From Candidatus Omnitrophota bacterium (GTDB lineage Bacteria > Omnitrophota > Gorgyraeia > Duberdicusellales > 4484-171), in the NCBI GenBank assembly GCA_003154195.1, contig PMCS01000024.1, positions 28 to 64,027 of the forward strand: 64,000 nt of DNA. The letters are read 5' to 3'. Of this stretch, positions 7,146 through 47,346 are shown piece after piece (the first letter of the stretch is position 1; every line of letters starts with the position of its first letter). Made by a program: the position numbers and the translations under genes. The notes under the pieces are model-generated. The model ran no database searches. It worked only from the letters and a program-made list of their open reading frames with translations, and had not been told where the DNA came from.

Positions 7146-7461
7146 GGAAGCTATTTTACAGGAAGTAGTGAAATTTGGGAAGGGAAAAATAAAACCAAAA
7201 GCTTTACCACTAAGTCACTAAAACACGAAGACACGAATAATATAAAAACTCATTTTATATTGTTCATTGACCATTTAACGTTTTAAATTTTTAAAAATGA
7301 TAAATGACCAACGTCCAATGATATTTTTAAAATGAATTTGTTGTTTTTCTTTGTGTACCTTGTGTCTTGGTGGTACGATTTAGGTTTTAATTTTTTAGTT
7401 TTTAAAATCCTTTTCTTTACCTGTGATCATCGGCATCATCTAATCAGCGATCATCCGCGTT

Positions 7462-10400: not shown

Positions 10401-12753
10401 AAGAGCTGTTGGTTATTGCCGGGCTGGGAGAAGACGCCACATAAAAATCATCGATTGGCTCAATTTCGCGGGTTTCTGTTGGGAATAGAGTTACTCTGGC
10501 GACCAGGTTGTAGGCCCCGACTGTATGGGTAAGGGACAAGCTAACTTTTTTTTCCTCGCCGTCAACTATAGCGTCAACCCTCTTCGACCAGGCTATATCC
10601 AACCCAACGGGTTTACTTCCCGTACCGGGTATCAACGCGTTAGCAGCATCGGCAACCAATTCGGGCCGCAGCAAATCAACCCCCTTCGCTCTCAATGCTT
10701 CCAAAAGCTGGGCGGGTTTATTTTTGTTTATCGTGAGAGAGTAGCGAGCAGGTGACGTTTGCTTCTCATCGCCCTCGCCGACCGGGCTGGAAATTGCTTC
10801 GACCCCGATATTCTTTACGCGGCCATTCTGGTAAAGCGCTAAAAGAAATGTAATATACGGTTTGCTCGAGAAAGACCTTCCAAGGCTACCATCACTGCTA
10901 TCAATCGATACCCGTAAATCAAACTCTCCCCTGCGAGTTTGCTCACGAGAAACCGCGATAGAGAGATAACCTGTTTTACCAATTTGTGGTGTATAATCAT
11001 CCACCGGGAGCTGGAGAACTCGGGAAATTAATTCTTCCAATTGAAATTCTGCTGAACCATGCAACGACGAAGCATTAGCCCGCCACCATGTAGGCGTTTT
11101 AACCGTACCCCTATCAATCACGTTTACCGTATCGCGATGCGTTTCCGCAAACCCTAAAATCGCTCCTGTCGCGATTTTTCCGACAGCATCGGCCTCAGCC
11201 GGCGCCATGCGTTGCAAAGGGCTGGCGGCGCGCTGATATGCCGCAAGCCAGTCGTTACCACTTGGCTTCGAAGTCTCGACGGTTAACGTGTAGGTATTAG
11301 TATCATAAGTAAGGGTAGTCGTGCCGCTATGTGAACGCAGTATTATTTTTCCGGGAGTATTTTTATCCGCTGACAGAAAAGACCAGGGAGTAATACCGGC
11401 CGCGGACGATTCGCCGTTTCGAATCGAAAAATTGGCCACTGAGCCGCTATCCGATCCATTCGCAATCCATATGCTGATTACTTTTTTGCCTTCCCTGACT
11501 TCCAGCGATACAGGAATCTCAACTTTTAATTTACCGGGATCGGCGGGAATGTCTTTCGCGATATCATCAGGTCCCCTTTGCCGCGCGGCCGGCGCTGTTG
11601 GCAACGGACTCGCGCCTACCCCTGCTACTGCCAAAGTACTCACATTGACCAGCTTGCCGTTGTGGGCTACGCTATCCAGAGAAGAGCTTATGGCCAGCTT
11701 AGTGACCAGGGGGCTGTTGGCGATAAGGGATTCGATACCGCCGGAGAAGTAACGCCGGCGGACTTGGTGTTTGGTAGAAGGGTCCTGTTCTTTTTTAATG
11801 TAGTTATAGATGCCTTTCTTGAAGGCCTGGGTATAGAGAGAATAGATTTTTTCTTTGGCCTGGGGGTCGTTGATGTCTATGCCTTTGATATTCTTCTGGT
11901 TGATGTAGTGCTTATAGAATGATTCTTTGAATTTATCCTTGAACCACTTGGCCAGGATCAGGGAGTAGTAGATCTGGCGTAACGTAGCAAAATTCTTGCC
12001 GGAATTAATATCATCGGTGATTTTTGGTACTACGACTTCGCGCATTACATCCGAAGCCACCTTGTTGGTTTGCCCTGCTTTTTCATCCTTCGTTCCTTTC
12101 TGCAATGCGAGAAAGTCTTGTTCGAGCATTGCCTTAAGCGTAGCCTGGTTTATCACTACGGTGTTCTTGTATTCATAGACCTCTGACTTATCGGGAGTGA
12201 TCCAAATCTTGTTGAAGGTATTTATCGGTAAATTATCGGTTCCCGCTAATTTACCGATTTGAGAGTAAACCGATTGCCAGTAATTCCTTCCGATAGAATT
12301 TTCCGGATGGGTGAGGCTGGAGACTAATTGCTTTAAGATATAGTCCTGGGCTAACATATCTCTCCCTACATCGGTATGTATCGCTTCATTGGTGATTACC
12401 CGGTCTTTTTCATAAACGGATAAGTTGACCCAGAGGTCGTTTTCCGGGATGGTTAATCCTGCTAAAAAATACCTGATCAATTTATCGGCCTCTTCCTTGT
12501 CTACCGTGTCTTTGCTGGCAGTATCGATGATAAATTCTATCTGCAGGGGGTTAGCCGGGTTAAGTTTTAATCCCTTTAATATAGGAAAGGAGTAGGTTGC
12601 TGAGAGATTCAGTAGCTGGGTCGGTTCGGGCAGGGCCATGGCGGCGTGGGCGTAATTCACGCCTACGCTTGTGCCCAGGAACGAAGACAAAACAAGAATG
12701 AAAACGAGTTTCGAAAATAATTTCTGCTGGGGTTTGGCGAGAAAAATAAACAT
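7462..12753 (-). CDS. giant secreted hypothetical protein (1763 aa) with an internal tandem duplication
   Basis: N-terminal signal peptide; no recognisable catalytic motifs; 2 x about 112-aa near-identical repeat (AAKTIYQGLSNAMRYGAWIMRLADLPQEIDVLRIG.NRTLIINRNNLE). Confidence 0.6.
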   Translation of the reverse strand: MFIFLAKPQQKLFSKLVFILVLSSFLGTSVGVNYAHAAMALPEPTQLLNLSATYSFPILKGLKLNPANPLQIEFIIDTASKDTVDKEEADKLIRYFLAGLTIPENDLWVNLSVYEKDRVITNEAIHTDVGRDMLAQDYILKQLVSSLTHPENSIGRNYWQSVYSQIGKLAGTDNLPINTFNKIWITPDKSEVYEYKNTVVINQATLKAMLEQDFLALQKGTKDEKAGQTNKVASDVMREVVVPKITDDINSGKNFATLRQIYYSLILAKWFKDKFKESFYKHYINQKNIKGIDINDPQAKEKIYSLYTQAFKKGIYNYIKKEQDPSTKHQVRRRYFSGGIESLIANSPLVTKLAISSSLDSVAHNGKLVNVSTLAVAGVGASPLPTAPAARQRGPDDIAKDIPADPGKLKVEIPVSLEVREGKKVISIWIANGSDSGSVANFSIRNGESSAAGITPWSFLSADKNTPGKIILRSHSGTTTLTYDTNTYTLTVETSKPSGNDWLAAYQRAASPLQRMAPAEADAVGKIATGAILGFAETHRDTVNVIDRGTVKTPTWWRANASSLHGSAEFQLEELISRVLQLPVDDYTPQIGKTGYLSIAVSREQTRRGEFDLRVSIDSSDGSLGRSFSSKPYITFLLALYQNGRVKNIGVEAISSPVGEGDEKQTSPARYSLTINKNKPAQLLEALRAKGVDLLRPELVADAANALIPGTGSKPVGLDIAWSKRVDAIVDGEEKKVSLSLTHTVGAYNLVARVTLFPTETREIEPIDDFYVASSPSPAITNSSSLREIKDELRAIKTAMRETQGANYDAAGEMVKLLPPIATSRVKKVFISEYALRFALRQDQKDDLLEQTFGRDLIMSLHRGGWTIGVPRHWSDAVPTAFLESNPVTWVMVLGLDQFKEPMFKWLKRLTMNGVVNSDKKDTVTLAAMIIKKLWDSTNASPVNTTSRIDKTDLPSRKKLFENIGAAIQEQIAASGEMIRADGRYSESAIDTIKEAAVSQIVAGIGASSKEEFLANRPDLFKFGIAAALSVGLPRFAFLASGDRITVLESAQDYDTQSLAAYFGQPVDVVLPRGIMPEKALTAGIEMVRRMASEDMATIESEYYKGVPSSFVIMPLGKITALSAGEYATQHRPLVLEFQSRLSLIRRLYQDEARILANAAIFKTVGTTTYQKQLADAIRAIDVWQPSREAREDLASVSSASPVDDIHNLGTGDRATPREILFTTGVAAKRGRSFSGADARRGSPSIVRINEFKYFARFLSVLAEAINALGVGKDLTFARLVSFIRLHRSSFIITDSRDVVYNDEGFRMNSLSDLEPFRQALEARGWSIAVEGELWRINAIGKRVSRSASAGQGKSGIRQLTAGKTKTAAGAASPVHYRDVDVEKDGKTLGVESAIAGEAAKTIYQGLSNAMRYGAWIMRLADLPQEIDVLRIGDNRTLIINRNNLEVLATSKESREVRIDSLSAQYLDAGNWREIVLIVENSRDNQVEYKNVDAQRDGKTLYVEKDISAAAAKTIYQGLSNAMRYGAWIMRLADLPQEIDVLRIGGNRTLIINRNNLEALTAGKESREVRIDSLDAQHLTAGNWQGIINIVEETSAASPAQKLTVLDAIRINDAIHTFLGIIGANGATSVFGPNQEFEEALAGRYEIAVTLKGGVSTFDLVKAQEYIAQLKGEYPGSEITLDASGTQPKFVITAAGSNAGAEKPVEVTSSPGGIKMSGIQVASSPTSQKMEFAAVGPDFFDRLTFRIVSMKQIISLAQFASLP
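7965..8636 (-). repeat. tandem 2 x about 336-bp in-frame duplication inside the giant gene
   Basis: nt 8001-8200 nearly identical to nt 8338-8535. Confidence 0.8.
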
Positions 12754-13063: not shown

Positions 13064-13377
13064 GTTACTTTACAGGAAGTTAGGAAGTTTGGGGAGGAAA
13101 ATAAGAAGAAAATTTCTCTCGCTAAAGTCGCAAAAAACAATAATATTTTCACATGCAGAGCACGCAGGGTGTTTCATTGCTGTCCAAATTATAGAAACAA
13201 TAAAACATCTCACATGTAGAGCTTGTAGGGCATGTAGAAAAAAGCATACAAACCCTTTATCTATTTTCTACATTTTCTACATGTCCTACATGTAAAATTT
13301 ATTTTAATCTTCGATTTCTTTAGTTATTTTTGTGCGTGTTGTTGGGGAAAATGTTTGTTTTTATCTGCTTTCTGCTA

Positions 13378-14283: not shown

Positions 14284-14406
14284 GGCAAGTTGGTTTGGTC
14301 CACAGATTTCTCAGATTTATCGGATTGAAGATTGGATAGATTAATGCAATATTTTAAAAAAATTAATCTTTTTTTTGAATCCGCAGAAATCTGCGTAATC
14401 TGTGGA

Positions 14407-14934
14407 CTAATTGTTTTTTGTTTTTTTAAAGGAATCTATCAGCAGCAATCCTGTTCCGGTGGTAATGCACGAATCCGAAATATTAAACACCGGCCAGACG
14501 CGGAAATCGAAATAATCCACGACGTATCCTAAGGTTATCCGGTCGCATAGGTTGGATATTGCGCCGCCCAGGATCAGGCCGCAGGATACCATAAAAAGGG
14601 CATCGCGCCGCTTTTCGCTTTTCAGGAATAGTAGAAAAAGCAAAATAAAGATAACACCGGTATAAATTAAAAAGTTGGTTTTTCCCGATAGGAGGCTGAA
14701 GGCGGCGCCTTTGTTAAAAACTACGGTTATGTGGAAAATATTTTTTATTACCGGGGTAGAGGTAAACGCGAAGTATTCACGCAGGTAGGTTTTGACAACG
14801 AAGTCTACGACAAAGACAATCGCTGCCGTAAAGAATACCGTTCTATTATTTTTTGCTTTGCTAATTGAACAAAATGAGCTTGCCTCATTTTGTTCAATTA
14901 GACTTTGTTTTCTTTCTCTATCTCTTCCTGGCAT
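14407..14934 (-). CDS. lspA: lipoprotein signal peptidase (signal peptidase II); start codon uncertain
   Basis: NKGAAFS and FNISD/VDYFDF motifs match the LspA family; four TM segments. Confidence 0.75.
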   Translation of the reverse strand: MPGRDRERKQSLIEQNEASSFCSISKAKNNRTVFFTAAIVFVVDFVVKTYLREYFAFTSTPVIKNIFHITVVFNKGAAFSLLSGKTNFLIYTGVIFILLFLLFLKSEKRRDALFMVSCGLILGGAISNLCDRITLGYVVDYFDFRVWPVFNISDSCITTGTGLLLIDSFKKTKNN

Positions 14935-19288: not shown

Positions 19289-19437
19289 GCTATCTCCTTG
19301 CTTCTTTTTTGGCCACAAATTAATCAATGTGTTTAGCCACTGATGCGCACGGATCGAACACGGATATTTTTTGTTTCATTGAAATCCGTGTTTATCCTTG
19401 ATAATCCGTGGCTAAATAAAACCAATGGCGTCGTTTG

Positions 19438-20304: not shown

Positions 20305-20490
20305 ACTTAGCTCCTGGGTAATGGTAAGGGTAACGATGCCCGTATAGGCTAAAGACTTGGTCAGGGTAAAGGTAAGGATGCCAGTATAGGTTAGGGTTAA
20401 GGTAAAGGTTTTAAGATTAGTATCAGCCCTAACCCTTGCCGTAACCCAAACTGGCTTCGTTACCCTAGCCCTAGCCTTAACCGATTTTTA
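20305..20490. repeat. about 170-bp imperfect palindromic repeat (GGTAAGG/GGTTAGG-rich arm versus CCCTAACC/CCTTAACC-rich arm), copy 1
   Basis: reverse complement of 20400-20490 matches 33440-33530 almost base for base. Confidence 0.8.
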
Positions 20491-26090: not shown

Positions 26091-26591
26091 TCAGTATAGT
26101 TTTTTGCCCGGCAACTTATTCCAGTCACTGAACAACTGGTTACATTCACCAAGCAATAATCCGGGGACGATTTTTATCTTTATTTTTGCCAGCACCTTTA
26201 AACGGACATTACTGATCTTCATCTCATTAAAACCGATTTTACCGGCATCGGCAATACCGGTTCCATAAACAATAGTTCCTATCCTCGCCCAGTGGATTGC
26301 GCTAAAGCACATCGGACAAGGCTCGGTAGTAGAATAGATTATCGAACCGGAAAGGTCGAAGGTTTTGTTTTTGCGCGAAGCGATACGAATGGCATTTATC
26401 TCCGCGTGGCAGGTGGCGTCGTTTTTTAATACTGTATTGCGCGCCAGGGCAATGATTTTTCCGTCCTTGACAACGCAGGCGCCAAAAGGGCCGCCGTCCA
26501 TGCGCTTAAGGTTTTTCCTTGCTTCCTCAATCGCCCGGCGCATGTATTCGGGGTTTAATATATTCTTGCCGAGATTAGACTTGTATTTCAT
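26091..26591 (-). CDS. CMP/dCMP-type zinc deaminase (TadA / guanine deaminase-like)
   Basis: CHAEINAI and PCPMC zinc-binding motifs. Confidence 0.75.
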   Translation of the reverse strand: MKYKSNLGKNILNPEYMRRAIEEARKNLKRMDGGPFGACVVKDGKIIALARNTVLKNDATCHAEINAIRIASRKNKTFDLSGSIIYSTTEPCPMCFSAIHWARIGTIVYGTGIADAGKIGFNEMKISNVRLKVLAKIKIKIVPGLLLGECNQLFSDWNKLPGKKLY

Positions 26592-26630
26592 GCAGTAACC
26601 ACGCTAAAAAATTATACTATAAAGATAAAA

Positions 26631-26850
26631 AAATAAAACCTAAACCTACCACTAAAGCACCAAAATAAAAACAAAACCAAAATATTTACCACCAAGGCAC
26701 CAAGAGCACCAAGAAGATTAGTAGTTGCATTCTTTTCTTTGTGCCCTTTGTGGTAAGTTTTAGGTTTTATTTATATTCTATAGTTTTGACCTATAGTTTT
26801 TACTTTATATTTTTGTGTTTTGGTGGTAAATTTTTAAGTTTTTTTTAGTC
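26631..26850. repeat. four copies of the CTTGGTGGTAAAnTTTTGGTTTT intergenic element arranged as two nested inverted pairs
   Basis: reverse-complement-form copies at 26631-26665 and 26668-26718; plus-form copies at 26735-26775 and 26800-26848. Confidence 0.8.
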
Positions 26851-27837
26851 TTAATACTTCGGTTTATTTCGCCCTGATTTTTTGTAACCTTTGGCGAAAG
26901 GTTTTGGCGGCCGGGTGCTTGTTTTGTCCCAGGTTCTGGGTTTTCCTTTGCCTCTTTGGCCAAAGCCTTGTTTTTCCGCCGGTTTTTCCCAGGGACGGGT
27001 TTTGTGGCCGGCTTTTTTCCATGGCCTTGTCTCCTCCCGGTCTTTTACCCATGGCCGGGAACCATCACCGCTCTTTTTCCATAGCGCGGGGTCAGCGTCG
27101 AATTTTTTTCGCGGCCTTATTCCTTGCTCATCTTTTTCCCAAGGCTTAAAGCCGCCGCCGCTTTTCTTTCGCGGTTCAGCCGGAGCAAATTTTTTCCAGG
27201 GTTCGGTTGATTCCTCTTTTTTCCTCCATGGCTTGAAACCGCCGCCGGTTTTTTTCCACGGCGTGGACGCAGCCGTAAATTTTTTCCAAGGCTGAGATTT
27301 CCCTTTATCTTTACCCCAGGAATCGCGCTGCCCATCTTTTTTATGCCCTTGTTTGGGGCGGCCAGAGCTTTTATGGACAGGCGCGTTAGCGCTACCGCCG
27401 GCGCCTGAGGGGCCGCGGCCGTTCCAGGAATTACGCCGTCGCCGGCTGGTGTCCCATTGTTCATCCTTTTTCACCAAAGCCGAATCGCGGGAAAATTTTA
27501 TCCGGCGCGGCTCCGGCGCGGGACGGGAAATATTTTCAATCGGTGCGCTCCACGACAAAAACGCGTCTTTTTTTACGCTCGCGCGAGGTGCTTTAGGCTT
27601 AGACTGCGCTTTAGCCACATTAAGCGGCCGGTCAATAAATTCTTTGCCGTTTAGCGATGCGATTGCGGCGAGAGCCTGCTGATTATCAGGCATGGTAACA
27701 AAGCCAAAACCGCGCGATTTATCCGTATTCTTTTCCGTAACGATTACGGCGGAAGAAACGTCGCCAAAGTTTTCGAAAAGTTGCTTAAGGTCGTCCTTAG
27801 CCGCGCTGAATGATAAATTACCTACAAAAATTTCCAT
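26851..27837 (-). CDS. RRM-domain RNA-binding protein with a long basic PW[KE]K-repeat C-terminal tail
   Basis: N-terminal RNP-type RRM (IFVGNLSF...RGFGFVTM); about 240-aa low-complexity tail with more than 10 PWKK/PWEK repeats; SD AAGGAG. Confidence 0.75.
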   Translation of the reverse strand: MEIFVGNLSFSAAKDDLKQLFENFGDVSSAVIVTEKNTDKSRGFGFVTMPDNQQALAAIASLNGKEFIDRPLNVAKAQSKPKAPRASVKKDAFLSWSAPIENISRPAPEPRRIKFSRDSALVKKDEQWDTSRRRRNSWNGRGPSGAGGSANAPVHKSSGRPKQGHKKDGQRDSWGKDKGKSQPWKKFTAASTPWKKTGGGFKPWRKKEESTEPWKKFAPAEPRKKSGGGFKPWEKDEQGIRPRKKFDADPALWKKSGDGSRPWVKDREETRPWKKAGHKTRPWEKPAEKQGFGQRGKGKPRTWDKTSTRPPKPFAKGYKKSGRNKPKY

Positions 27838-28046
27838 ATATCTCCTTTAGGCTGGTTGGAATAATTCTACCATAGAAACTTATTTTAGCCACGGATTAAC
27901 ACTGATTTTCACGGATAAATGATGTATTCGTTAAGTTTTTGATAAAAATTCAATAACCAATAATGGTAATTTTTTAAATTTTATAATATTGTTTATCCAA
28001 ATCCGTGTTCCATCTGTGAAAATCAGTGGCTAAATAAACGCATTGG

Positions 28047-31586: not shown

Positions 31587-31620
31587 TAATAAGAAAGTAA
31601 AATGAAATACAAAAACTTTT

Positions 31621-31798
31621 GTCCACAGATTGCTCAGATTTTTATGGCTTAAGAAAAAGATTGGGATATTTATAGATATAAAATAATCCCGCCGTATTTT
31701 GGCGGGATTATCCCGGTAGGCCACCGGCGTGAGCCGGTGGTAGTTCACTTTTTAAATCTGTTTAATCCCAATCCTATTAATCTGAGAAATCTGTGGAA
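31621..31798. repeat. inverted pair of GTCCACAGATT-nCnCAGATTT elements flanking two GC-rich hairpins
   Basis: left copy at 31621-31650; right reverse-complement copy at 31755-31798; internal hairpins atcccgccgtattttggcgggat and ccaccggcgtgagccggtgg. Confidence 0.75.
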
Positions 31799-31820
31799 AA
31801 ATTTTTTGGTTGGTTTTTAA

Positions 31821-32399: not shown

Positions 32400-32476
32400 G
32401 TATTTGTCTTTATCCTTATGCTCCGCGAAGCGGAGCCGGATAAAGAAACCCTGCGGTAAACCGCAGGGTTTCTTTA

Positions 32477-33343
32477 TTAGGAGACCATTTCGTATATCTT
32501 CTGCCAGGTTTTGGCATGTTTATGCTTTTTCCACAAATGGACAAATTTTTCATACCAGGTTTTGCGGCATTTCTCGCATTCATGGTGATAGTATTTCAGA
32601 AATCCGGATAGCTGCCGGTTATTTTTAAGCGCGCGCGCCTGCTCAAGCCAAACGTCAAATTCGTGGACACTGCCCAGCGCGCGCTGTATTTCAACCAAGT
32701 TTCTGAGGTATTCTTCCGATTCCCCCGGATAAATGGCTTGGAAAAGTTCTAAGGTATAGCGTAAGTGTTTCGCTTCGATACGCATCCGGTGAAGTTTTTT
32801 CCGGGCGTGCGGCTTTTTAACGTAAGGTTCGTAGGCAAGAAGATTTTTAAGGCACCGGGTAACTTTCTTACGCGCGAGAGCGCGCAATCCATGATCATCG
32901 CGCCCGTTATCTTGAGCGACGGCACGCCCAATTTGATCGGGTATCTTTGTTTTATTAAAGCGCTTTACTTCCGCGAGGGCTTTTGTCTGAGCGTCACGTC
33001 GGCGGATTTTATAGATTGTGGCCAGCTCATTAAGCCCCTGCGCTTGTTTTTTTGACAACGCGGCGCCAGGAAAATTTTTCAGGAATTCGATATGGACATC
33101 GAGGTCGCGCGTTTCGCTTAACACGTCAGAAAGGCGGCTCAGGGTTTTTCCCCATTTTTTGCGCTCTTTTTTCGAAAACTGCTTTTTTAAGACCCATAAC
33201 GCGGCGCGCAAACGTCGGGTCGCCACCCGCGCCTCGTGGACATGCTCGATGCTATGGGATTTGGGGATATTATCCAGATGCGCAGCCAGGGCGGTAAGGT
33301 AGCGGAAGATGGTTTGGTTTAAGCGATTATCGATAGTTTCCAT
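32477..33343 (-). CDS. CHAD-domain protein (polyphosphate-granule-associated)
   Basis: conserved His/Arg-rich helical pattern (HEARVATRRLRAAL, KKLHRMRIEAKHLRY). Confidence 0.6.
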   Translation of the reverse strand: METIDNRLNQTIFRYLTALAAHLDNIPKSHSIEHVHEARVATRRLRAALWVLKKQFSKKERKKWGKTLSRLSDVLSETRDLDVHIEFLKNFPGAALSKKQAQGLNELATIYKIRRRDAQTKALAEVKRFNKTKIPDQIGRAVAQDNGRDDHGLRALARKKVTRCLKNLLAYEPYVKKPHARKKLHRMRIEAKHLRYTLELFQAIYPGESEEYLRNLVEIQRALGSVHEFDVWLEQARALKNNRQLSGFLKYYHHECEKCRKTWYEKFVHLWKKHKHAKTWQKIYEMVS

Positions 33344-33349: not shown

Positions 33350-33612
33350 TGGTTAGGGCTATGGCTAGGCTCTCCTTCGCCCTTCGAGCTTTGGAAAAGT
33401 CTCGCCGAAGCCATAGCGAAGGCGGAAAGCCGGTAATAATAATCAGCTAGGGCTAGGGTAACGAAGCCAGTTTGGGTTACGGTAAAGGTTAGGGCTGATA
33501 CTAATCTTAAAACCTTTACCTTTACCTTAACCTATACTGGCATCCTTACCTTTACCCTGACCAAGTCTTTAACCGATACCGGCATCGTTACCCTTACCCT
33601 AGCCGTTTTTAA
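33350..33612. repeat. about 170-bp imperfect palindromic repeat (copy 2, inverted relative to copy 1) plus additional flanking hairpins
   Basis: 33440-33612 matches the reverse complement of 20305-20490. Confidence 0.8.
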
Positions 33613-33613
33613 T

Positions 33614-35617
33614 TTACGTATAGTGCTGGATAAAAAACTCCTGGGCGTTGAATTTATCGCCGGTAATATCAGGTTTAGCGTATTTTTTATCATCCGATAA
33701 AACCCAGGATTTTACATTGTCCTTCCAGCAATTATCCAGGATAAAACGCAGGTGTTCTTTCAGCTCGTCTTTGTATATCTCAAACAAAAGTTCGATGCGC
33801 CGGTCGAAATTACGCGTCATCCAGTCGCTGGAAGCCATGAATATCCGGGGGCCGGCGTTATTATTGAACATATAAATCCGCGAATGTTCGAGGAACCGGC
33901 CGACGATACTTTTTATTTCGATATTTTCGCTTAAGTTTTTAACACCGGGGATAATCACGCATATACCCCGGACAATCAATCTTATTCTCACCCCCGCGTT
34001 CGATGCTTCGTACAGCTTTTCCGCAATTTGCGGGTCTTCCAGGGAGTTCATCTTGGCAAAAATAAAACCATTTTTATATTTCTTATGGTACTCAATTTCC
34101 TTGTCGATCATTTCGAAAAAATATTGGCGTAAATCGTAAGGCGACGAGACAATCCGGTTCCATCTTCCCGGTACGGAATAGCCGGTAATGGCGTTAAAAA
34201 CTTCGGAGATATCTTTGGCGAAATCGTCGTTGGCGGTAAAGTACCCGGCATCAGTGTAAGCGGAAGCGGTTTTTTCGTTATAATTGCCGGTTGACACATG
34301 GACATACCGGCGTATCCTTCCCTCTTCCTTGCGCACTACCAGCGTTATCTTGGAATGAATCTTCATCCCGGCGATACCGTACATCACATGGCACCCCGCC
34401 GCTTCTAAATCCTTTGCCCAATCGATATTGCGCTCTTCGTCGAAGCGCGCCTTGATTTCTACAAGAATCGTTACCTGCTTCTTGTTTTTTGCCGCCTCTT
34501 TCAGGGATTTAATTATGGCGGAATTTTCATCGGTACGGTAGAGGGTCATTTTGATGGCCAGGACGTTTTCGTCTCTGGCCGCGGTTCTGATAAGGTCGAC
34601 GGTCGGCTGGAACGATTGATAGGGAAGGTGGATTAAGAAGTCGCCTTCTTTTATTTTGTCAAAAATATTCTCGTATTCGATTTTTTGAGGAACAAAACTT
34701 TTATAGAGCAATTGCGGCTTATTGAGCTGCGCCGCTAATTCAAATAAATAACTTAATCCCAGCTCGCCGTCAATACCGGTGATCTCTTCCTGGGGAAAAT
34801 CGATACTGGCAAAAAGCGTTTCCAGTATTTCCGCCGGGCAGGATTTTTCTACCTGGGCGCATACGATTTTTGCCTGAGGCCGTTTTTTGACTTCGTTTTC
34901 GATAGCTTTTAAAAGATTGGGCGCGTATTCTTCGTCAACCGACAATTCACTGTCCCGGACTACGCGAAAAAGAGAATTCCCCGCCACTTTATACCCCTTA
35001 AAAAAACCGTCGATATTCTGGCGGATGATTTCATCAATTAAAATAAAATCAAGTTCGTCTCCGGCGGAGGGCAATTTTAAAATTCGCGGCGCAGCTTTGG
35101 GTATCGGCATAACCGCGAGGTGGTTGACATTGTATCGTGACAGCATCACGGCAAAGGCAATGGTTTTTGACGGCAGGACCGGAAATGGCCGGCCCTGGTC
35201 AATCGCCATCGGCGTAATGATGGGAAAAAGCGTTGTTTCAAAATAGGCCCGGCTGTATTTTTTTTGCTCCGCGCTCAACTCCTCGTATTTCCGGATAAAA
35301 ATCTTATTTTTTTCCAGTTCCTTGGCGATTTTATCTTTATAGGAATAAAGTTTTTTATTTAAAAGCTGCACCGTCCCTTTGATTTCCAGGGCGATATCGG
35401 TCGGGAAATAGCCGAAGTTATCTTTTTGGTTATACCCGGAATCAATCAGGCGTTTCAGGCCGGCCACGCGAACCATAAAAAACTCGTCCATGTTATTGGC
35501 GAAAATCGCCAGGAAGCGTAAGCGTTCCGCCAGGGGATTGGACGAGTCAACGGCTTCTTCCAGCACTCGTTCGTTAAACGCCAACCAGCTCAGATCACGA
35601 TGAATAAATTTTTCCAT
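33614..35617 (-). CDS. ppk: polyphosphate kinase 1
   Basis: 667 aa with PPK1 N-terminal, catalytic and two PLD-like C-terminal domains; N-terminus MEKFIHRDLSWLAFNERVLEEA. Confidence 0.85.
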   Translation of the reverse strand: MEKFIHRDLSWLAFNERVLEEAVDSSNPLAERLRFLAIFANNMDEFFMVRVAGLKRLIDSGYNQKDNFGYFPTDIALEIKGTVQLLNKKLYSYKDKIAKELEKNKIFIRKYEELSAEQKKYSRAYFETTLFPIITPMAIDQGRPFPVLPSKTIAFAVMLSRYNVNHLAVMPIPKAAPRILKLPSAGDELDFILIDEIIRQNIDGFFKGYKVAGNSLFRVVRDSELSVDEEYAPNLLKAIENEVKKRPQAKIVCAQVEKSCPAEILETLFASIDFPQEEITGIDGELGLSYLFELAAQLNKPQLLYKSFVPQKIEYENIFDKIKEGDFLIHLPYQSFQPTVDLIRTAARDENVLAIKMTLYRTDENSAIIKSLKEAAKNKKQVTILVEIKARFDEERNIDWAKDLEAAGCHVMYGIAGMKIHSKITLVVRKEEGRIRRYVHVSTGNYNEKTASAYTDAGYFTANDDFAKDISEVFNAITGYSVPGRWNRIVSSPYDLRQYFFEMIDKEIEYHKKYKNGFIFAKMNSLEDPQIAEKLYEASNAGVRIRLIVRGICVIIPGVKNLSENIEIKSIVGRFLEHSRIYMFNNNAGPRIFMASSDWMTRNFDRRIELLFEIYKDELKEHLRFILDNCWKDNVKSWVLSDDKKYAKPDITGDKFNAQEFFIQHYT

Positions 35618-37596: not shown

Positions 37597-38367
37597 TTAT
37601 TTGGGGTTTACGGTGTTGGCTAAGGTAATATATTGTTTCAGGGAGATATTCTCCGGACGCAGATTGGGGTCGATGCCGCAGGATAACAGGATATCCTTTT
37701 TATCCTCCAGACGGAGAGCATTGATGATTTTTTTCCGGCGGTTGGCGAAGGCTTTCTTGATCAGTCCAAAGAGGAAATCCTCGTTTTCGGCCTTAACTGT
37801 AGGCGCAATCGAGAAATCCAGCATAGCAAAAGTAGAACTGACCTTAGGAATCGGCGAAAAGGCGTTAGCCGGGATATCAAAAATTTTAGTGATTTTAGCA
37901 TAATATTGTAAATAGCAGCTTAAAAAAACGTAATCATCAGTTGAGGGTTTAGCGATAAGCTTATCGATGAATTCTTTCTGGCAAGTCAAGTAAGCGTGTT
38001 TGATAAATGACCGATTTTCAATCAGACATTTAATGATCGGACTACTGATGCAGTAAGGGATATTGCCAAACACAATCACCTTATCCTTGAGACAGGAAAA
38101 ATCAAAAGTAAGAATATTTTTATTCACCAACTCGATATTTTTATAATTAATGAATTGGATAACCAGTAATTCATGTAATTTTGGGTCGACTTCTACGGCA
38201 TAGAGTTTTTTGGCTTCCTGCGCCAGGTATTTAGTTATCGCGCCCTTCCCCGGCCCGATCTCGAGCACAGTCTCCCCGGTAACGTTGATCGAATTTTTGA
38301 TTTTTTCGATATAACTTAAGTTGGTGAGAAATACCTGGCCGAGAGTTTTGCGATTTAGATAGCTCAT
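37597..38367 (-). CDS. rsmA: 16S rRNA (adenine1518/1519-N6)-dimethyltransferase
   Basis: KsgA/Dim1-family N-terminus (LGQVFL...LEIGPGKGAIT). Confidence 0.85.
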   Translation of the reverse strand: MSYLNRKTLGQVFLTNLSYIEKIKNSINVTGETVLEIGPGKGAITKYLAQEAKKLYAVEVDPKLHELLVIQFINYKNIELVNKNILTFDFSCLKDKVIVFGNIPYCISSPIIKCLIENRSFIKHAYLTCQKEFIDKLIAKPSTDDYVFLSCYLQYYAKITKIFDIPANAFSPIPKVSSTFAMLDFSIAPTVKAENEDFLFGLIKKAFANRRKKIINALRLEDKKDILLSCGIDPNLRPENISLKQYITLANTVNPK

Positions 38368-39581
38368 ATTAAAACCTGAATATAAACCAAAAACCTACCA
38401 CCAAGACACTAAGGCACAAAAAACAAAGACTAAAAATAAATTTTCACCACAGAGAACACAGAGCGCACAGAGAAAACAGAACCAAGAAACTTTTCCCCAC
38501 CCGCTCGCTTCGCTCGCTGGAGAGCACGAAGCCCACGAAGGGAAAACAAATTTTTACCGCAAAGGCGGTGTGTAGCGGAGCGAAGCGTAACCTCCCCAAA
38601 AGGGGACAAAGTGCGCAAGGTAAATAATTAAGTACGTGTCCCCGGAACTTCGAACTTAAAATAAGTTTTAATGGTTTTTCATGGAATCTCTTCCGAATAT
38701 TAAAAAAAAGGGATAGTTAAATTGTCTTGTCAAAATTATGAATTTTCCATCCTGAACGGACGGCCCAGACATTAGTTCAATTTCATCTTTATCTTCGATA
38801 TAATAAAAAGCCATACCGAAGATGTCATTCCTATTGGCAAGTTCTTCGGGTATAGGAATTTTTATTTTTATTATATCGTCAGCATATCCGGATTGGCTTG
38901 TGTCTTTACTTATGGGGGAAACTTTAATTACACTGACTTTTCCCCCGTAAGTAACTTTAACTTTAGGATGCTCGAAATAAGCCGCCGCTACGCTTACACT
39001 TATTTTTTGTTCTGTTTTTAATGCATTTTGAGGAAATTCTATTTCTACGCCGTCAAGAGGGTAGTCGGAATTCGGAACAGTTATGAGACCGCCTTTAGGG
39101 CCTATTGTTTGTGAGCATATTTCAACAAAATTAGATTCATACGTTATAATTTTAGCTTGAGCGCAAAATGTTGATCCGGGAAGCATTAATGTAATAAGCC
39201 CAAGATAAAAGATATTAAGGAATTTTTTCACGAAAACATCCTTTTTTATTTTCCTCTGACAAAAAAATCATACGACAATCCTATTTTTTAATATTAGTTG
39301 AAAGTCTTTAGCGGCCGGGGTGTCTTCTAGTTAATAATAACGCGAAAAAGTATTTGTCTTTATCTTTGGAAATCTGCGTAATCTGTGGACAAAAATATTT
39401 TGTATTTCTTTGTACCTTAGCAGTCAGAAATCATTCTTCCAGTTTTTTCATTCCTCTTCCTTATCTCTTGTTTTTTGCTCTTTTTCTTTTGGTATCTCTC
39501 TGCGAACTCTGTGCGCTCTGTGGTGAAAATTTTATTTTTTGTGCCTTGGTAGTAAATTTTTTGGTTTATCTTCTTTTGTTT
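38368..39581. mobile_element. 1.2-kb cassette with about 100-bp imperfect terminal inverted repeats inserted between pdxA and rsmA/ksgA (MITE-like; carries one secreted-protein gene)
   Basis: left inverted repeat 38372-38492 and right inverted repeat 39460-39581 are reverse complements (shared ...attttcaccacagag...cgcacagag... and ttaccaccaaggcacaaaaaa cores); both abut the flanking genes directly. Confidence 0.55.
38668..39231 (-). CDS. hypothetical secreted protein (cassette passenger gene)
   Basis: N-terminal signal peptide MKKFLNIFYLGLITLMLPGSTFCAQA; no recognisable domain. Confidence 0.5.
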   Translation of the reverse strand: MKKFLNIFYLGLITLMLPGSTFCAQAKIITYESNFVEICSQTIGPKGGLITVPNSDYPLDGVEIEFPQNALKTEQKISVSVAAAYFEHPKVKVTYGGKVSVIKVSPISKDTSQSGYADDIIKIKIPIPEELANRNDIFGMAFYYIEDKDEIELMSGPSVQDGKFIILTRQFNYPFFLIFGRDSMKNH

Positions 39582-40520: not shown

Positions 40521-40692
40521 ATATGTAGTAAGTAGAGGGATGAAAAGAAAATTGTTTTCCGTTGAAAGGTTGCGTAGCTCGTCACGGCGTTCGGCAAAAA
40601 AGACGGTAACCGTATGACGATAAACAATTCGAGTTACGCAACCGATAACCGATTGACGTATTTTTTCTCTTTACTTTTCGCTCTCTACTTCC

Positions 40693-41682: not shown

Positions 41683-41874
41683 TTTCAATCTTTCTAAATC
41701 CGCTGCGGGCGGATTTACCGATAAGCCTACCATGCGGTTCAGCAGTAGGGTAGGCTTATTCTCCTTCGCCGAATACCCTGTGGTCTTGCCACAGGGATGA
41801 AGGCTATGATCTTCGGCTTCGGAGAAATGAAGCTGGATACCCCGCGGTCTTGCCGCGGGGAGAACATTGGTGCT

Positions 41875-42192
41875 TCATTTTTTAATTTTTAATTGTACCC
41901 GGCTCCAGCCGATGGTGCAATAAAATATTCCTGCCAGAAAAATTGCGGCGACGATTATTATGGAAACAACCGCCGGCGAAACAGAATAGTTAATTATTAA
42001 TTTCACAATCACGCAGAGCAGAATGGTTATCGTGTAGCCGGCGCCCAGAGAAATCATCGGCCAGAATAAAAAATCTCTTGTCCGTACCACCGATTTCGTT
42101 CCGCAGTTGGAACATTCAAATCCGGTCAGCATCGTATGCGTGGATAACCGGTACCACGGGATCGGTTTATTACATTTGGGACATTCCGCCAT
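41875..42192 (-). CDS. small zinc-ribbon membrane protein
   Basis: CPKC...CSNC pairs followed by two TM helices. Confidence 0.5.
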   Translation of the reverse strand: MAECPKCNKPIPWYRLSTHTMLTGFECSNCGTKSVVRTRDFLFWPMISLGAGYTITILLCVIVKLIINYSVSPAVVSIIIVAAIFLAGIFYCTIGWSRVQLKIKK

Positions 42193-42214
42193 GTTGTATA
42201 TTTTTTTAGCACAG

Positions 42215-42390
42215 ATGATCGCTGATTAGAAGATGCAGATTACCGCAGACAGGAACCAAATTAGAATACTCCGCAAATTTTAATTAAGCAAAATTAGTGA
42301 GTATTATAAAGACGAATAGCTTGCAACCGGTTCTTCTAATCTATCATCGCCAATCTTTTTATCAGCGGCCATCAGCATCTTCTAATCAGC
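42215..42390. repeat. inverted pair of GATGATCGCTGATTAGA(A/T)GATGCAGAT elements (family C)
   Basis: 42222-42238 cgctgattagaagatgc and 42368-42384 gcatcttctaatcagcg form a perfect 17-bp inverted repeat; homologous copies at 7421-7465 and 54640-54790. Confidence 0.8.
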
Positions 42391-42394
42391 GATT

Positions 42395-44287
42395 CTAACC
42401 GACTTCTATTTTAAACGCTTCCTTCAAATATTCAACCTCTTTCTTCAGCAGGCGGCAATAAAGGTCAAAGCCGACCATCCAGATGAAACCGTGCTGCTCT
42501 TTACCCAGGACATTCCCCGCCCCGCGTAATTCAAGGTCGCTCATGGCGATATCGAAGCCGGCGCCCAGATGCGAAAACTCCGTTATCAACTCCAGCCTTT
42601 TTCTCGCTTCTCCGGGGATTTCCGCTAACCGGGGGATTACCAGGTAGGCGTACGCCTGGAGATTGAAACGGCCCACCCGGCCGCGTAATTGATGGAGGTC
42701 GGCGAAACCAATTTGATGGGCGTTGTTGATAATGATGGTGTTGGCGCTGGGTATATCGATTCCCGATTCGACAATGGCAGTAGAAATCAGGCAATCGATT
42801 CGTTTTTCGATAAAGGAAAGCATGACTTTTTCTATCTCATGGGAAGGAAGCCGCCCGTGCACGACTCCGATTTTCACTTCCGGCGGCAGGACTCTTCTTA
42901 ATGTCTTTTCCAGCTCATATATTGTTTCAATGCGGTTATGGACGATAAATACTTCGCCGCCGCGATTAATTTCTTTTACGACCGCTTCTTTCAGGAGTGC
43001 CGGCGAGAATTCAGCGATTCTTGTCTTCACCGCGAGCCTTTCCTGCGGCGGCGTCTGAATCAGGGATATATTTTTCATTCCAATCAGTCCCATATAGAGA
43101 GTGCGCGGTATCGGCGTCGCGGTGAGTGTTAAAATATCGATGCCGATTTTCACTTTTTTTAATATTTCTTTATGTTCGACGCCGAATTTATGCTCTTCAT
43201 CGATAATCAGCAGGCCTAAATCCTTAAAGGCAATATCCTGCGAAAGAAGCCGGTGGGTGCCGATGACAATGTCGATTTTTCCTTCGCTTACTTCCCGGAC
43301 AATTCTTTCCTGCTGCGCGGTAGAGCGAAAACGTGACAGCATCTCCACTTTTACGGGAAAATTTTCCAGGCGTTTGCATAGGTTGGTATAGTGCTGGTAG
43401 GCCAGGATTGTCGTGGGAACGAGGAAAGCTACTTGTTTGGAATCCATGACCGCCTTAAACGCCGCGCGCATCGCCACTTCGGTTTTCCCATAACCGACGT
43501 CGCCGCAGATTATCCGATCCATGCAGATATCCGATTCCATATCGTGTTTTACGTCGCGGACAGCATTAGCCTGGTCCGGCGTCTCGGTATAGGGAAAAGT
43601 CAGTTCAAAATCTTTCTGCCAGGGGGTATCGGCCGAATATTTAAAACCGCCGATGATTTTACGCTGCGCCTGCATCCGTAAAAGTTCCAGGGCGAATTCT
43701 TTTATCCCCCGGCCCACTTTCTCTTTCAGCCTGGTCCATTCCTTTGAGCCCAGGCGGCTTAATTTTGGATGTTTCGATGTGAAATTTACGTATTTCTGGA
43801 TCAGGTGGGCGTCTTCTTTGGAAACGTAAAGCTTATCGCCTTTTTCATAATGCAGCTCAAGGTAACTGCCCTCTATTCCTTTAACCGTTAATTTTTTAAC
43901 GCCGGAGAATTTTCCGATGCCATAGCGGTTATGCACCACATAATCGCCGGCTTTTATGCGCAATACCGCGTCGAGCGGAAGGTCTTCGTTGGCGTACTTC
44001 CTGGCTTTTTTGAAATGCGGGATAATAATAAGAAAATCGTAATCGATGATTTTCTTATTCATTATTTTGTCGAAGCTGTAAATTTTTCTGACGGTGTCGA
44101 GCTCCCATTCCAATCGGAGAGGAAAATTGAAATTGACGGGGAAAATCTGCAGAGTATCGCCCCGGACCGAAAAATCGCCTTCTTCGGCGATTTCGTCGCA
44201 GCGACGGTAGCCTAAATCACAAAGAGCTTTCTCGGTATTTACCAGAGAAAGCTCTTTGTTAAGATAAAGTTTTAAAGTATTAAACAT
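42395..44287 (-). CDS. mfd: transcription-repair coupling factor Mfd, short form lacking the N-terminal UvrB-homology domains
   Basis: RNAP-interaction domain (IGKFSGV...), SF2 helicase motifs (DEEH, TATPIPRT, QLRGRVGR) and C-terminal TRCF domain; only 630 aa. Confidence 0.7.
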   Translation of the reverse strand: MFNTLKLYLNKELSLVNTEKALCDLGYRRCDEIAEEGDFSVRGDTLQIFPVNFNFPLRLEWELDTVRKIYSFDKIMNKKIIDYDFLIIIPHFKKARKYANEDLPLDAVLRIKAGDYVVHNRYGIGKFSGVKKLTVKGIEGSYLELHYEKGDKLYVSKEDAHLIQKYVNFTSKHPKLSRLGSKEWTRLKEKVGRGIKEFALELLRMQAQRKIIGGFKYSADTPWQKDFELTFPYTETPDQANAVRDVKHDMESDICMDRIICGDVGYGKTEVAMRAAFKAVMDSKQVAFLVPTTILAYQHYTNLCKRLENFPVKVEMLSRFRSTAQQERIVREVSEGKIDIVIGTHRLLSQDIAFKDLGLLIIDEEHKFGVEHKEILKKVKIGIDILTLTATPIPRTLYMGLIGMKNISLIQTPPQERLAVKTRIAEFSPALLKEAVVKEINRGGEVFIVHNRIETIYELEKTLRRVLPPEVKIGVVHGRLPSHEIEKVMLSFIEKRIDCLISTAIVESGIDIPSANTIIINNAHQIGFADLHQLRGRVGRFNLQAYAYLVIPRLAEIPGEARKRLELITEFSHLGAGFDIAMSDLELRGAGNVLGKEQHGFIWMVGFDLYCRLLKKEVEYLKEAFKIEVG

Positions 44288-47338: not shown

Positions 47339-47346
47339 AAAAAGTT

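Follow-up and report, generated by a model that had tools for sequence, protein, structure and literature searches.

In Xanthomonas, GGGAATC arrays form 70-75 convergent inverted pairs, located between aligned ORFs and in the vicinity of stop codons (Rehm et al. 2015, PMC4692102), and in Nostoc the heptamer unit that occurs in inverted pairs is GGGGA(C/T)T (PMC4692102). Cyanobacteria also carry STRR hairpins, for example between hupS and hupL, for which roles in transcript stability, translational coupling or termination have been proposed (PMC2670836). The Xanthomonas pairs of inverted heptamer arrays and the cyanobacterial STRR hairpins are the closest precedents for the element described here as Family A. 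The general kind of element is thus already described, and Family A is a variant with its own unit, cap and tail.

Family A is a dispersed repeat whose copy number is far above chance. A profile search of the window, by which we mean the whole 64-kb stretch of Omnitrophota DNA that was analysed, located nine arms in five intergenic regions. They are listed below, with the limits of the nhmmer match in brackets where these differ.

7184-7240 (nhmmer 7184-7233), minus strand: Family A arm with four units, TTCGTG, TTCGTG, TTAGTG and TTAGTGG; cap GTGGTAAAGC, tail TTTTGGTTTTATTTTT; TRF period 8
7346-7402 (nhmmer 7346-7394), plus strand: Family A arm, partner of 7184-7240
26630-26670, minus strand: outer left Family A arm with two units
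26667-26718 (nhmmer 26667-26717), minus strand: inner left Family A arm with three CTTGGTG units, the closest to the consensus; TRF period 9
26730-26775, plus strand: inner right Family A arm with two CTTTGTG units
26801-26849, plus strand: outer right Family A arm, adjoining the stop codon (26851) of an RRM/Rbp-type gene
38372-38425 (nhmmer 38376-38421), minus strand: Family A arm ending 5 nt before the ATG of ksgA/rsmA (gene 37597-38367, minus strand)
39535-39580 (nhmmer 39536-39574), plus strand: Family A arm adjoining the pdxA stop (39582)
51283-51335 (nhmmer 51286-51334), plus strand: Family A arm without a partner, located in a divergent spacer; it has the sense orientation relative to a TPR gene, whose first ATG follows directly

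The core GTGCCTTGGTGGTAAA, with up to three mismatches allowed, occurs eight times where 0.34 occurrences are expected, a count that none of 100 shuffles reached, and GGTGGTAAANTTTTGGTTTT occurs seven times in the window against an expectation of 0.06. An earlier note on this DNA had listed the same copies; its list is borne out by the nhmmer profile, which was built from an alignment of these same nine copies and recovers exactly nine arms in the window and no extra ones. No further copy was found in the 7 kb of the source contig that lie beyond the window. According to the ORF map all nine arms are intergenic, and eight of them stand in inverted pairs. In each of the four pairs the left arm is the reverse-complement form and the right arm the plus form, as the note had described, and the cap is outermost. 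Its loop range likewise held, from ~15 nt (the inner pair at 26.7 kb) to ~1.1 kb (the pdxA-ksgA block). The interiors of ~15 nt, 115 nt and ~1,100 nt have no sequence in common between copies.

Four of the five loci lie between co-oriented genes and the fifth (51283-51335) occupies a divergent spacer; the gene-proximal arms are all oriented toward the downstream gene. The arm at 7184-7240 lies ~45 nt upstream of the ATG of an EPSP-synthase gene (5733-7145, minus strand), and that at 26630-26670 lies ~40 nt upstream of the annotated ATG of a TadA-like deaminase gene (26091-26591, minus strand). For the TPR gene, the gene caller run on the source contig favours an ATG 27 nt downstream of the first one. 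The claim that plus-form copies sit directly 3' of minus-strand stop codons stands for the RRM gene and pdxA, at distances of 1-8 nt, but not for a gene of 1,763 aa (7462-12753, minus strand), past whose stop the arm at 7346-7402 follows only after ~60 nt, with an arm of another family in between.

Each arm consists of one to four degenerate 8-9 nt units, YTT-N-GTG-N, to which a fixed cap, GTGGTAAA, and a U-rich tail, TTTTnGGTTTTATTTTT, are joined. All nine copies show the units, and TRF reports a period of 8 at 7208-7237 and of 9 at 26690-26714. Roughly half of each arm, the cap and tail, is non-periodic and always forms the outer end, with the units turned inward. The consensus extends over 45-50 nt across the nine arms. 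Since they share this consensus, non-periodic tail included, the arms are copies of one source and not independent products of local slippage. The consensus has GTGGTAAA…TTTTGGTTTT as its two ends, of which GTGG pairs with the CCAC of the partner, and the A-rich/U-rich flanks AAAACCAAAA…TTTTGGTTTTATTTTT belong to the window consensus as well. Paired arms are 73-80% complementary, and terminal inverted repeats are present.

Pairs of Family A arms fold into long imperfect hairpins, whereas lone arms do not. The spacer 26592-26860 folds better than every shuffle on both strands (z = -4.0 and -4.7), and the spacer 7146-7461 reaches z = -2.8. In contrast, five single arms folded as DNA gave MFE values of 0 to -2.8 kcal/mol, with z between -0.4 and +0.7 relative to shuffles. 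The pairs at 26.6 kb had been described as nested. The minimum-energy fold is indeed nested, but by best match the arms pair in an interleaved order (26631-26670 with 26733-26772, and 26669-26703 with 26812-26846). At the first locus, the 115-nt loop between 7184-7240 and 7346-7402 contains another, unrelated palindrome.

With the heptamer pairs of Xanthomonas and Nostoc, Family A has in common tandem degenerate units of 7-9 nt, convergent arrays able to form a stem-loop or cruciform, enrichment between aligned ORFs and near stops, and a variable number of units (PMC4692102); a GGGATT-like family in the window (56221-56365 and 57319-57443) resembles the heptamer units themselves. Unlike the heptamer pairs, Family A has a YTT-N-GTG-N unit of 8-9 nt in one to four copies and a fixed cap and tail, and it cannot form a G-quadruplex. 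STRRs offer a parallel as intergenic hairpins made of tandem short units between co-transcribed genes (PMC2670836). They differ from Family A in unit sequence and host phylum, are mostly described as direct arrays, and have no described cap-plus-tail module. The Family A unit matches none of the described units (STRR1-3, GGGNATC, TAACTGA), and literature searches by arm sequence and keyword found no description of the family. In Rfam scans the gathering score was reached in the window by tRNA-Glu only, with no Family A match, and E-value scans of the focal spacer, at the RRM-tadA junction, and of eight loci from other phyla returned weak generic miRNA-hairpin matches alone.

A REP unit is a palindrome of 20-40 bp with an unpaired GTAG or CGTC tag (PMC3733652). 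The likeness to REP/BIME elements that had been suggested for Family A is sound as regards distribution, in intergenic inverted pairs after the stops of co-oriented genes: REP, BIME and REPIN sequences are high-copy and extragenic, are frequently arranged as inverted pairs that can build larger structures, and lie mainly 3' of coding regions and where neighbouring genes are unidirectional or convergent, with an occasional copy within a gene (PMC3733652). Membership itself is not supported. A single Family A arm is not a palindrome, and the spacing of partners is not fixed. The consensus contains no unpaired GTAG/CGTC tag, GTAG occurring in one mutated copy only (39548). No transposase or HUH/Y1 (RAYT) domain was found by Pfam in 49 of the ~51 window ORFs, 42 of which carry ordinary cellular domains and 7 of which have no match, and none is annotated in 7 further kb. 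Membership among classical MITEs is not supported either: no target-site duplication was seen at the pdxA/ksgA boundaries, which were inspected by eye and not systematically, and the interiors, from 15 nt to 1.1 kb, are unrelated. Around elements of other phyla, flanking sequence frequently continues the palindrome instead of forming direct repeats. The Rickettsia palindromic elements (RPE), reportedly described by Ogata and colleagues in 2000, are said to be 100-150 bp long, conserved in sequence over their full length, and both intergenic and in frame within genes. The in-frame insertion of a sister family in hisF, described below, recalls them; unlike RPE, the elements have short-repeat arms, and no Family A copy is intragenic.

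The pdxA-ksgA block, where Family A arms form the outermost left and right boundaries, holds three further features.

38432-38473, no strand assigned: left arm of a family with CACAGAG units and cap CCACAGAG/…CTCTGTGGTGAAAA; nested, immediately inward of the left Family A arm
39497-39538, no strand assigned: CACAGAG right arm, nested inside its Family A counterpart
38668-39231, minus strand: 187-aa ORF with an N-terminal signal peptide, inside the block

The two CACAGAG arms are 42 nt long and 83% complementary. The 187-aa ORF represents a real but unnamed protein family with 87 distant homologues and has no Pfam or NCBIfam match. In the window pdxA and ksgA are 1,214 nt apart, whereas in two syntenic Omnitrophota relatives, L206 and L207, they overlap by 4 nt and no element is present. 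The elements at this junction are therefore secondary insertions. In the closest relative, with 74% identity in KsgA, the ksgA junction has a spacer of 37 nt that holds a solo arm of a different family. The earlier note had held that presence at orthologous sites in all relatives, with no sign of mobility, would make the elements conserved regulatory structures; the absence seen here favours gain or mobility, in a comparison that for Family A itself covers the one junction. Family A was not found in ~1.15 Mb of relatives' sequence.

Along the L207 gene run hisF-hisI-trpE-S16-yajC-secDF-mfd-surA-pdxA-ksgA the spacers measure -4, 21, 14, 14, -1, -8, 197, -8 and -4 nt. Five of these junctions are expanded in the window, and each of the five holds periodic palindromes. 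At the focal RRM-tadA junction no synteny was found in any relative, TadA relatives included, and none of 80 metagenomic loci with ABC-F relatives (50-73% identity) was syntenic with the focal spacer. A neighbouring gene of 613 aa belongs to a large paralogous family without a close orthologue. The focal spacer is identical in sequence in all of the 16 or more metagenomic contigs of the same organism, and there is therefore no within-population insertion polymorphism at this site.

The earlier note was right that Family A is real, but it missed that this architecture, with arms of degenerate short tandem repeats, recurs in many families of the window, of which Family A is one. At least 17 other intergenic regions of the window carry palindromes of this build with other units, among them GGGATT, GTAGAAA, CATGTAG and GAAGGAC, which are unrelated to the Family A unit. 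About half of the larger spacers in the 64 kb hold a palindrome with short-repeat arms. Pairing of arrays on the basis of TRF is too strict for such degenerate units, and a comparison of array density did not discriminate. One sister palindrome lies in frame within hisF and adds 28 aa that are lacking in L207, a finding more in keeping with selfish DNA than with a dedicated signal for regulation. On the transcribed strand, 19 window hairpins contain 24 mismatches of the A·C type, 29 of the G·T type and 116 others. The absence of a G·U bias is as expected for decaying copies, and not for stems kept by selection at the RNA level.

Related arms occur well outside this lineage. We scanned 596 Gb of genome contigs with GTGNCTTGGTGGTAAA, a pattern so short that ~1,100 chance matches are expected; about half of the matches listed are true elements. 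Among these matches, CAC-N-AAG units with a GGTGGT cap appear in Proteobacteria, Acidobacteriota, Chloroflexota, Cyanobacteria, Bacteroidota, Planctomycetota and others, with Azospirillum canadense DS2, Geothrix paludis SG195, Pedobacter psychrodurus and Fischerella thermalis PCC 7521 as cultured carriers. The distribution is patchy, with absence from relatives and related arms in many phyla; two IMG/VR contigs carry the element, and BLAST found no match in plasmid and phage collections, to which low-complexity filtering may contribute. The hairpin geometry with the cap outermost prevails by 36:1 among the matches listed. The two arms show no covariation, N and spacer positions being free, and complementarity between the arms of one locus (0.73) is barely higher than the similarity of arms across genomes (0.65). 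TTTT within 12 nt was found for 11 of 63 related elements against 7 of 56 controls among the matches listed, so that the U-tract is mostly absent, and several elements lie so near a Shine-Dalgarno sequence and start codon (ATG) that the cap could not serve as a -10. Gene context, read crudely from ORFs, was co-directional in 28, convergent in 12 and divergent in 7 cases among the matches listed, counts on which we place little weight because ORF calls are unreliable in high-GC loci.

We favour, with moderate confidence, the reading that Family A is a non-coding, non-autonomous palindromic repeat that belongs to a broader class of palindromes with short-tandem-repeat arms, made of inverted arrays of degenerate 7-9 nt units, and that has spread as selfish or near-neutral DNA. 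In this Omnitrophota lineage the elements are later additions to the spacers of housekeeping operons that are compact apart from them; they would have spread through some copy mechanism, and their arms would lengthen and shorten by replication slippage, for which unit numbers of one to four are as expected. Copies may persist where the transcript folds back, which would bring the upstream stop and the downstream start together at the base of a single hairpin and leave both cistrons functional. The Family A hairpin and its U-rich tail probably also serve, incidentally, as a leaky bidirectional terminator-like structure or one that protects mRNA 3' ends; a terminator or mRNA-stabiliser role is plausible but unproven. 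Against selfish spread we count that the 71 kb contain neither a transposase or RAYT nor any other gene for mobility, that no target-site duplication was seen, and that the focal spacer shows no insertion polymorphism among the metagenomic contigs. Moreover, the recurrence of units and cap across phyla, the 36:1 geometry and the lack of covariation between arms point to a constraint on specific sequence, for which a purely selfish model based on structure only gives no explanation.

The alternative that each pair is a dedicated transcription signal appears unlikely. Promoter-coupled terminators between tandem genes are reported to be common (preprint 10.64898/2026.08.19.745784), and each Family A pair could be a bidirectional intrinsic terminator, with an A-rich run, long stem and U-rich tail, perhaps coupled to a promoter that re-initiates transcription of the downstream gene. 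Like the bidirectional or promoter-coupled intrinsic terminators, it offers an A-tract, stem and T-tract between tandem genes, and its 3' arm and T-tract could double as promoter parts (preprint 10.64898/2026.08.19.745784). The 3' arm would then supply a -35-like TTG, while an extended -10-like TGgTAAAnT would come from the cap, or a TATTTT-like -10 from the tail; as read from the sequence, with 8-nt units the third TTGGTG falls exactly 17 nt upstream of TAAAnT, with TG before it. The position directly past the stops of co-oriented genes, the A-rich and U-rich flanks of the window consensus, the significant fold on both strands and the direction of the gene-proximal arms all agree with such a role. 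However, the stems are AU-rich, imperfect and much longer than in those terminators, their loops run from 15 to 1,100 nt where an intrinsic terminator has a short GC-rich stem, a loop of 3-8 nt and an immediate U-tract, and a terminator scan does not call Family A, while ordinary GC-rich hairpin/U-tract terminators exist elsewhere in the genome (for example at 32436-32481). The hexamers match at 8 of 12 positions only and are not called by a promoter scan. The scarcity of U-tracts and the crowding of caps against start sites in other phyla also tell against the signal, as do the lack of wobble bias and covariation and the sister palindrome within hisF. Genes that follow Family A arms have no strong Shine-Dalgarno sequence, as is true of about half of the window genes, and the difference is not significant.

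We advance only tentatively, and think it unlikely, that CAC-N-AAG/CTT-N-GTG palindromes with the outer cap ACCACC…GGTGGT(AAA) form one widespread, unnamed superfamily maintained by a sequence-specific partner and not by hairpin stability. The proposal is based on the outermost cap, on the absence of covariation at free positions, and on arm similarity, which between unrelated genomes comes close to that between the two arms within an element. The partner may be a dedicated nuclease or transposase, an RNA-binding protein of the RRM/Csp type, or RNA polymerase or Rho.

It is distinctly improbable, in our judgement, that Family A is a MITE-like element whose arms are terminal inverted repeats, whose units bind a transposase encoded elsewhere and whose cap is the cleaved terminus, the 1.1-kb version carrying the 187-aa ORF as cargo. 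The conserved cap is always outermost, in all four pairs here and by 36:1 across phyla among the matches listed, and the units are conserved without covariation, as expected of protein-binding sites; the variable interiors, one with a gene, the absence at the orthologous site in relatives, the patchy phyletic distribution and the two IMG/VR contigs are consistent with it as well. But by eye no target-site duplication is seen and flanks often extend the palindrome, the copies lack a common interior, the 71 kb contain no transposase, and plasmid and phage collections gave no match. Nor does simple cut-and-paste readily explain why, at either end of the pdxA-ksgA block, arms of two families are nested in register, or why the arms at 26.6 kb are interleaved.

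Very unlikely, finally, is a conserved cellular machine or RNA-binding protein that reads the arrays. The GU-rich 3' arm (CUUGGUG, 8-nt period) would be a run of RNA-polymerase pauses (G-10 Y-1 G+1, the motif specificity reportedly established by Larson and by Vvedenskaya in 2014) or a set of sites for a G/U-preferring protein, such as an RRM-type Rbp or a cold-shock protein, and the C-rich, G-poor 5' arm would be a Rho loading site or an anti-sequence. The cyanobacterial Rbp binds poly(U) and poly(G). The recurrence of unit and cap across many phyla, the free N and spacer positions and the barely raised complementarity agree with a reader, and an Rbp-type RRM gene flanks the focal spacer. That gene, however, adjoins only one of the five loci, and the case consists of pattern matching. 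Sister families of the window have the same architecture with unrelated units, so that no single motif reader accounts for the whole class. Resemblances to the DnaA box, Chi (GCTGGTGG), the IS608 TTAC target and DNA-uptake sequences are partial matches that fail across families.

If selfish or near-neutral spread is the correct account, a considerable part of this Omnitrophota genome's non-coding DNA would be a recent overlay of palindromes with short-repeat arms, elements that separate formerly overlapping genes and even lengthen a protein (HisF). Annotation and assembly are affected as well, with contigs breaking at the elements and the starts of adjoining genes made uncertain. The finding bears on operon evolution in uncultured phyla and on the old question of the role of heptamer and STRR-type repeats, a question that the presence of the cross-phylum CAC-N-AAG family in cultivable carriers would make accessible to experiment.

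Two minus-strand genes, encoding an RRM protein (26851-27837) and a TadA-like deaminase (26091-26591), flank the focal spacer (26592-26850), which carries two reverse-complement-form and two plus-form copies of Family A. We aligned nine candidate arms (alignment A1; consensus TTCTTTGTGTCTTnGTGCCTTGGTGGTAAAnTTTTnGGTTTTATTTTT), and an nhmmer profile built on this alignment returned the same nine arms only from the window (E-values from 3e-9 to 8e-3), all of them intergenic; 7 more kb of the same contig held no further copy. In the window the 16-mer core of the family is found 8 times (0.34 expected) and the cap-plus-tail 20-mer 7 times (0.06 expected). Family A is therefore a real feature, and the earlier note listed and described its copies correctly, small corrections aside. 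This includes the orientation of the pairs, since in all four the left arm has the reverse-complement form and the right arm the plus form.

The inner part of an arm consists of one to four degenerate units of 8-9 nt, YTT-N-GTG-N, in which N is unconstrained (C, A, G and T are each found); TRF assigned a period of 8 to 7208-7237 and of 9 to 26690-26714. The terminal unit invariably ends in GTGG and, together with the TA(A/G)(A/G) next to it, makes up the cap; a U-rich, non-periodic tail, TTTTnGGTTTTATTTTT, comes after the cap. In every pair the cap and tail are outermost and the unit array points toward the loop. Single arms were unstructured (folding z -0.4 to +0.7), and paired spacers folded better than shuffles: z was -4.0 and -4.7 on the two strands of 26592-26860 and -2.8 for 7146-7461. 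The long hairpins proposed for these loci can thus form, with arm-to-arm complementarity of just 73-80%. The non-Watson-Crick positions of 19 window hairpins comprised 29 of G·T type, 24 of A·C type and 116 others; wobble pairs were not in excess on either strand, the transcribed (minus) strand included.

Several observations concern the neighborhood of the arms. The RRM gene encodes an Rbp-type RNA-binding regulator (NF058537) with a basic tail of roughly 240 residues containing repeated (K/R)PW(K/E)K motifs. Cyanobacterial Rbp proteins favor G/U-rich RNA; the 3' arms of Family A are G/U-rich in composition. Gene starts beside the arms are uncertain at 26543-26591 (TadA; database versions are 150-159 aa long and begin about 16 codons downstream) and 51336-51362 (a TPR gene whose source-contig call has 181 aa and begins 9 codons downstream). 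Breaks within the arms occur in metagenome assemblies: contig L003 begins at window position 26687, and a truncated KsgA (P0122) is on record. A 336-nt tandem duplication (8001-8618; 1.8 copies, 89% identical) lies within the gene for a 1,763-aa protein.

A spacer survey and inverted-repeat listing revealed at least 17 other spacers with long imperfect palindromes of the same build and different units. They form at least nine sister families, and such palindromes occur in about half of the window's larger spacers.

Palindromes of the sister families in the window
19328-19420, 27880-28038: CACGGAT units
14295-14410, 31609-31810, 47201-47348, solo arms at 37437 and 39360: CCACAGAT units
38432/39538: CACAGAG units
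42215-42396, 54639-54795, solo arm at 7418-7461: GAT-rich units
20321-20472, 33438-33614: TAGGG/TAAGG units
56221-56365, 57319-57443: GGGATT units
13200-13305: CATGTAG units
53706-53860: GTAGAAA units
58643-58757: CCACGAGAT units
40521-40692: palindrome with short-repeat arms

Families with CAC/GTG units share a common foot: a T-run, 1-3 nt, CCAC … GTGG, 1-3 nt and an A-run. The GGGATT-family arms (TTGGGGTATTGGGAAATTAGGA… / …CCCTAATTTCCCAATCCCC) resemble GGGNATC/GGGGATT heptamers of Xanthomonas and Nostoc reported to form G-quadruplexes. The GTAGAAA-type palindrome (53706-53750 / 53816-53860) adjoins a tRNA-Glu (CTC) in 53629-53860, and the 558-nt spacer 62473-63030 holds many GC-rich palindromes of another style, such as GGCGGGCATCCCCCGCC…GGCGGGGGATGCCCGC. 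Ordinary GC-rich hairpin/U-tract terminators are present in the window too (for example 32436-32481), and the periodic palindromes therefore constitute an additional layer. That the palindromes are dedicated terminators, possibly coupled to promoters, we consider unlikely; among the listed matches from other phyla described below, TTTT followed the cap within 12 nt in 11 of 63 elements and in 7 of 56 chance matches.

Family A matched no Rfam family, and its arm sequence was not found in the searchable literature. The earlier note likened it to REP/BIME or MITE elements. Its distribution is indeed REP/BIME-like, but it is not a member, for the arm is not a palindrome and lacks the GTAG/CGTC tag of the REP definition (PMC3733652). 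Nor is it a typical MITE, as inspection by eye showed no target-site duplication and the interiors are unrelated. Of the roughly 51 ORFs in the window, 49 were scanned against Pfam: 42 gave ordinary cellular domains and 7 no match, with no transposase or HUH/Y1 domain among them. A transposon-type element, with the units as putative transposase-binding sites, seems improbable.

Closer counterparts exist among heptamer repeats. GGGAATC arrays of Xanthomonas form 70-75 convergent inverted pairs that favor spacers between aligned ORFs, near stop codons, with variable unit number and a pair type conserved between species (Rehm et al. 2015, PMC4692102). In cyanobacteria, hairpins of STRR heptamers separate hupS from hupL and have been suggested to stabilize the transcript, couple translation or cause termination (PMC2670836), and TAACTGA heptamers directly precede start codons in Beggiatoaceae, cyanobacteria and Bacteroidetes (PMC4679880). 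In architecture and position Family A is like all three. It differs in its unit, which is another and longer one, in having few units, and in a cap-plus-tail module that is fixed, occupies half of every arm and gives the element a strict polarity.

The KsgA and TadA homologues are annotated as Candidatus Omnitrophota/Omnitrophica. An identical focal spacer occurs in at least 16 metagenomic contigs of the same strain; as the RRM-tadA gene pair is kept in no relative found, this junction falls outside the orthologous-site comparison. The gene order at 37.6-50.1 kb of the window (hisF-hisI-trpE-S16-yajC-secDF-mfd-surA-pdxA-ksgA) is shared by two Omnitrophota MAGs, L206 (GCA_048635565.1) and L207 (GCA_021735655.1), each with a 4-nt overlap of pdxA and ksgA. 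The alignments of the window PdxA and KsgA stop no more than 2-5 residues short of the protein ends, yet 1,214 nt separate stop from start.

Features of the pdxA-ksgA gap (38368-39581)
38372-38425, 39535-39580: Family A arms, outer bounds of the gap
immediately inside these arms: CACAGAG-family pair
inside the gap: more solo arms
inside the gap: 187-aa signal-peptide ORF, member of a real protein family

This ORF has 87 distant homologues, in some of which it is the N-terminal domain of a larger protein. Neither Pfam nor NCBIfam has a name for it, and it is followed by a GC-rich hairpin with a T-run (about 38600-38650). From hisF to ksgA the L207 spacers measure -4, 21, 14, 14, -1, -8, 197, -8 and -4 nt. 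Five junctions (71, 188, about 660, 172 and 1,214 nt) are expanded in the window, and periodic palindromes are present in every one. The roughly 660 nt between mfd and surA (41734-42394; 13-197 nt in relatives) are filled by flanking palindromes and a 105-aa ORF (41875-42192) with a weak CxxC zinc-finger match (TIGR04104, E 5e-4). In L205, the nearest relative found (KsgA 74% identical), the pdxA-ksgA spacer is 37 nt and consists of a solo 3'-type arm of a different family (…CTTATCCGTGACTAAATT-ATG), with other periodic hairpins downstream. Family A is thus missing from the orthologous position in all three relatives, the comparison that the earlier note had proposed. It was also absent from about 1.15 Mb of related-genome sequence, some loci of which carry periodic inverted arrays of other units, including CGCAAAG, CGCCAAG and CACGAAG. 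The overlap in L206 and L207 and the different-family arm in L205 mark the elements as gains, whose turnover is fast relative to protein divergence.

Insertion is not confined to spacers. HisF (49293-50135, minus strand) has 28 residues more than its L207 counterpart, encoded by an in-frame 87-nt heptamer palindrome (GAAGGAC/GTCCTTC, 49650-49737; fold z -4.8), and the same loop in L206 holds a different insertion of CGCGATA direct repeats. The palindrome recalls the Rickettsia palindromic elements and is an argument for regarding the whole class as insertional DNA and not as a dedicated signal between genes.

A loosely specified short-pattern scan of a genome collection extended the class to other phyla; all figures are among the matches listed. 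Of 108 matches with full flanks, 58 had a further unit just upstream, compared with 1 of 108 for a control window; those 58 are true elements, such as TTTACCACCAAGACACCAAGGCACCAAG-loop-CTTGGTGCCTTGGTGTCTTGGTGGT. They combine CAC-N-AAG units with an ACCACC…GGTGGT(AAA) cap as in Family A. Carriers include Alpha-, Beta- and Deltaproteobacteria, Acidobacteriota, Chloroflexota, Cyanobacteria, Bacteroidota, Planctomycetota, Verrucomicrobiota and others (loci L015, L032, L051, L049, L017/L021, L083, L119, L115 and others), the cultured Azospirillum canadense, Geothrix paludis, Pedobacter psychrodurus and Fischerella thermalis, and two viral (IMG/VR) contigs, L216 and L217. Other window families adjoin the elements in some of these genomes, and at locus L085 a palindrome separates the end of a gene from a SAM riboswitch. 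Partner arms showed hairpin geometry, cap outermost, in 36 cases against 1 of the opposite geometry. Own-arm complementarity averaged 73% and arms across unrelated genomes were 65% alike; at free positions (the N and the spacers) the two arms of an element agreed no more often than shuffled pairs, with a weak exception at the third unit.

This cross-phylum constraint without arm covariation suggests, albeit doubtfully, that CAC-N-AAG palindromes are one widespread superfamily kept by a putative sequence-specific partner and not by hairpin stability. That the arrays are read by RNA polymerase, Rho or a G/U-binding protein, all putative readers, we hold to be very unlikely. We give roughly an even chance to Family A-type palindromes being non-autonomous, selfish or near-neutral repeats, a model that fits least well with that same constraint.

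In conclusion, Family A is a variant of an already known, poorly understood kind of repeat. Under the selfish or near-neutral model, palindromic repeats would be copied into new spacers and resized by slippage, and would be tolerated where the transcript folds back and brings the neighboring stop and start together at the hairpin foot. In the window's Family A, the hairpin with its U-rich tail would probably also provide partial termination or 3'-end protection in both directions.
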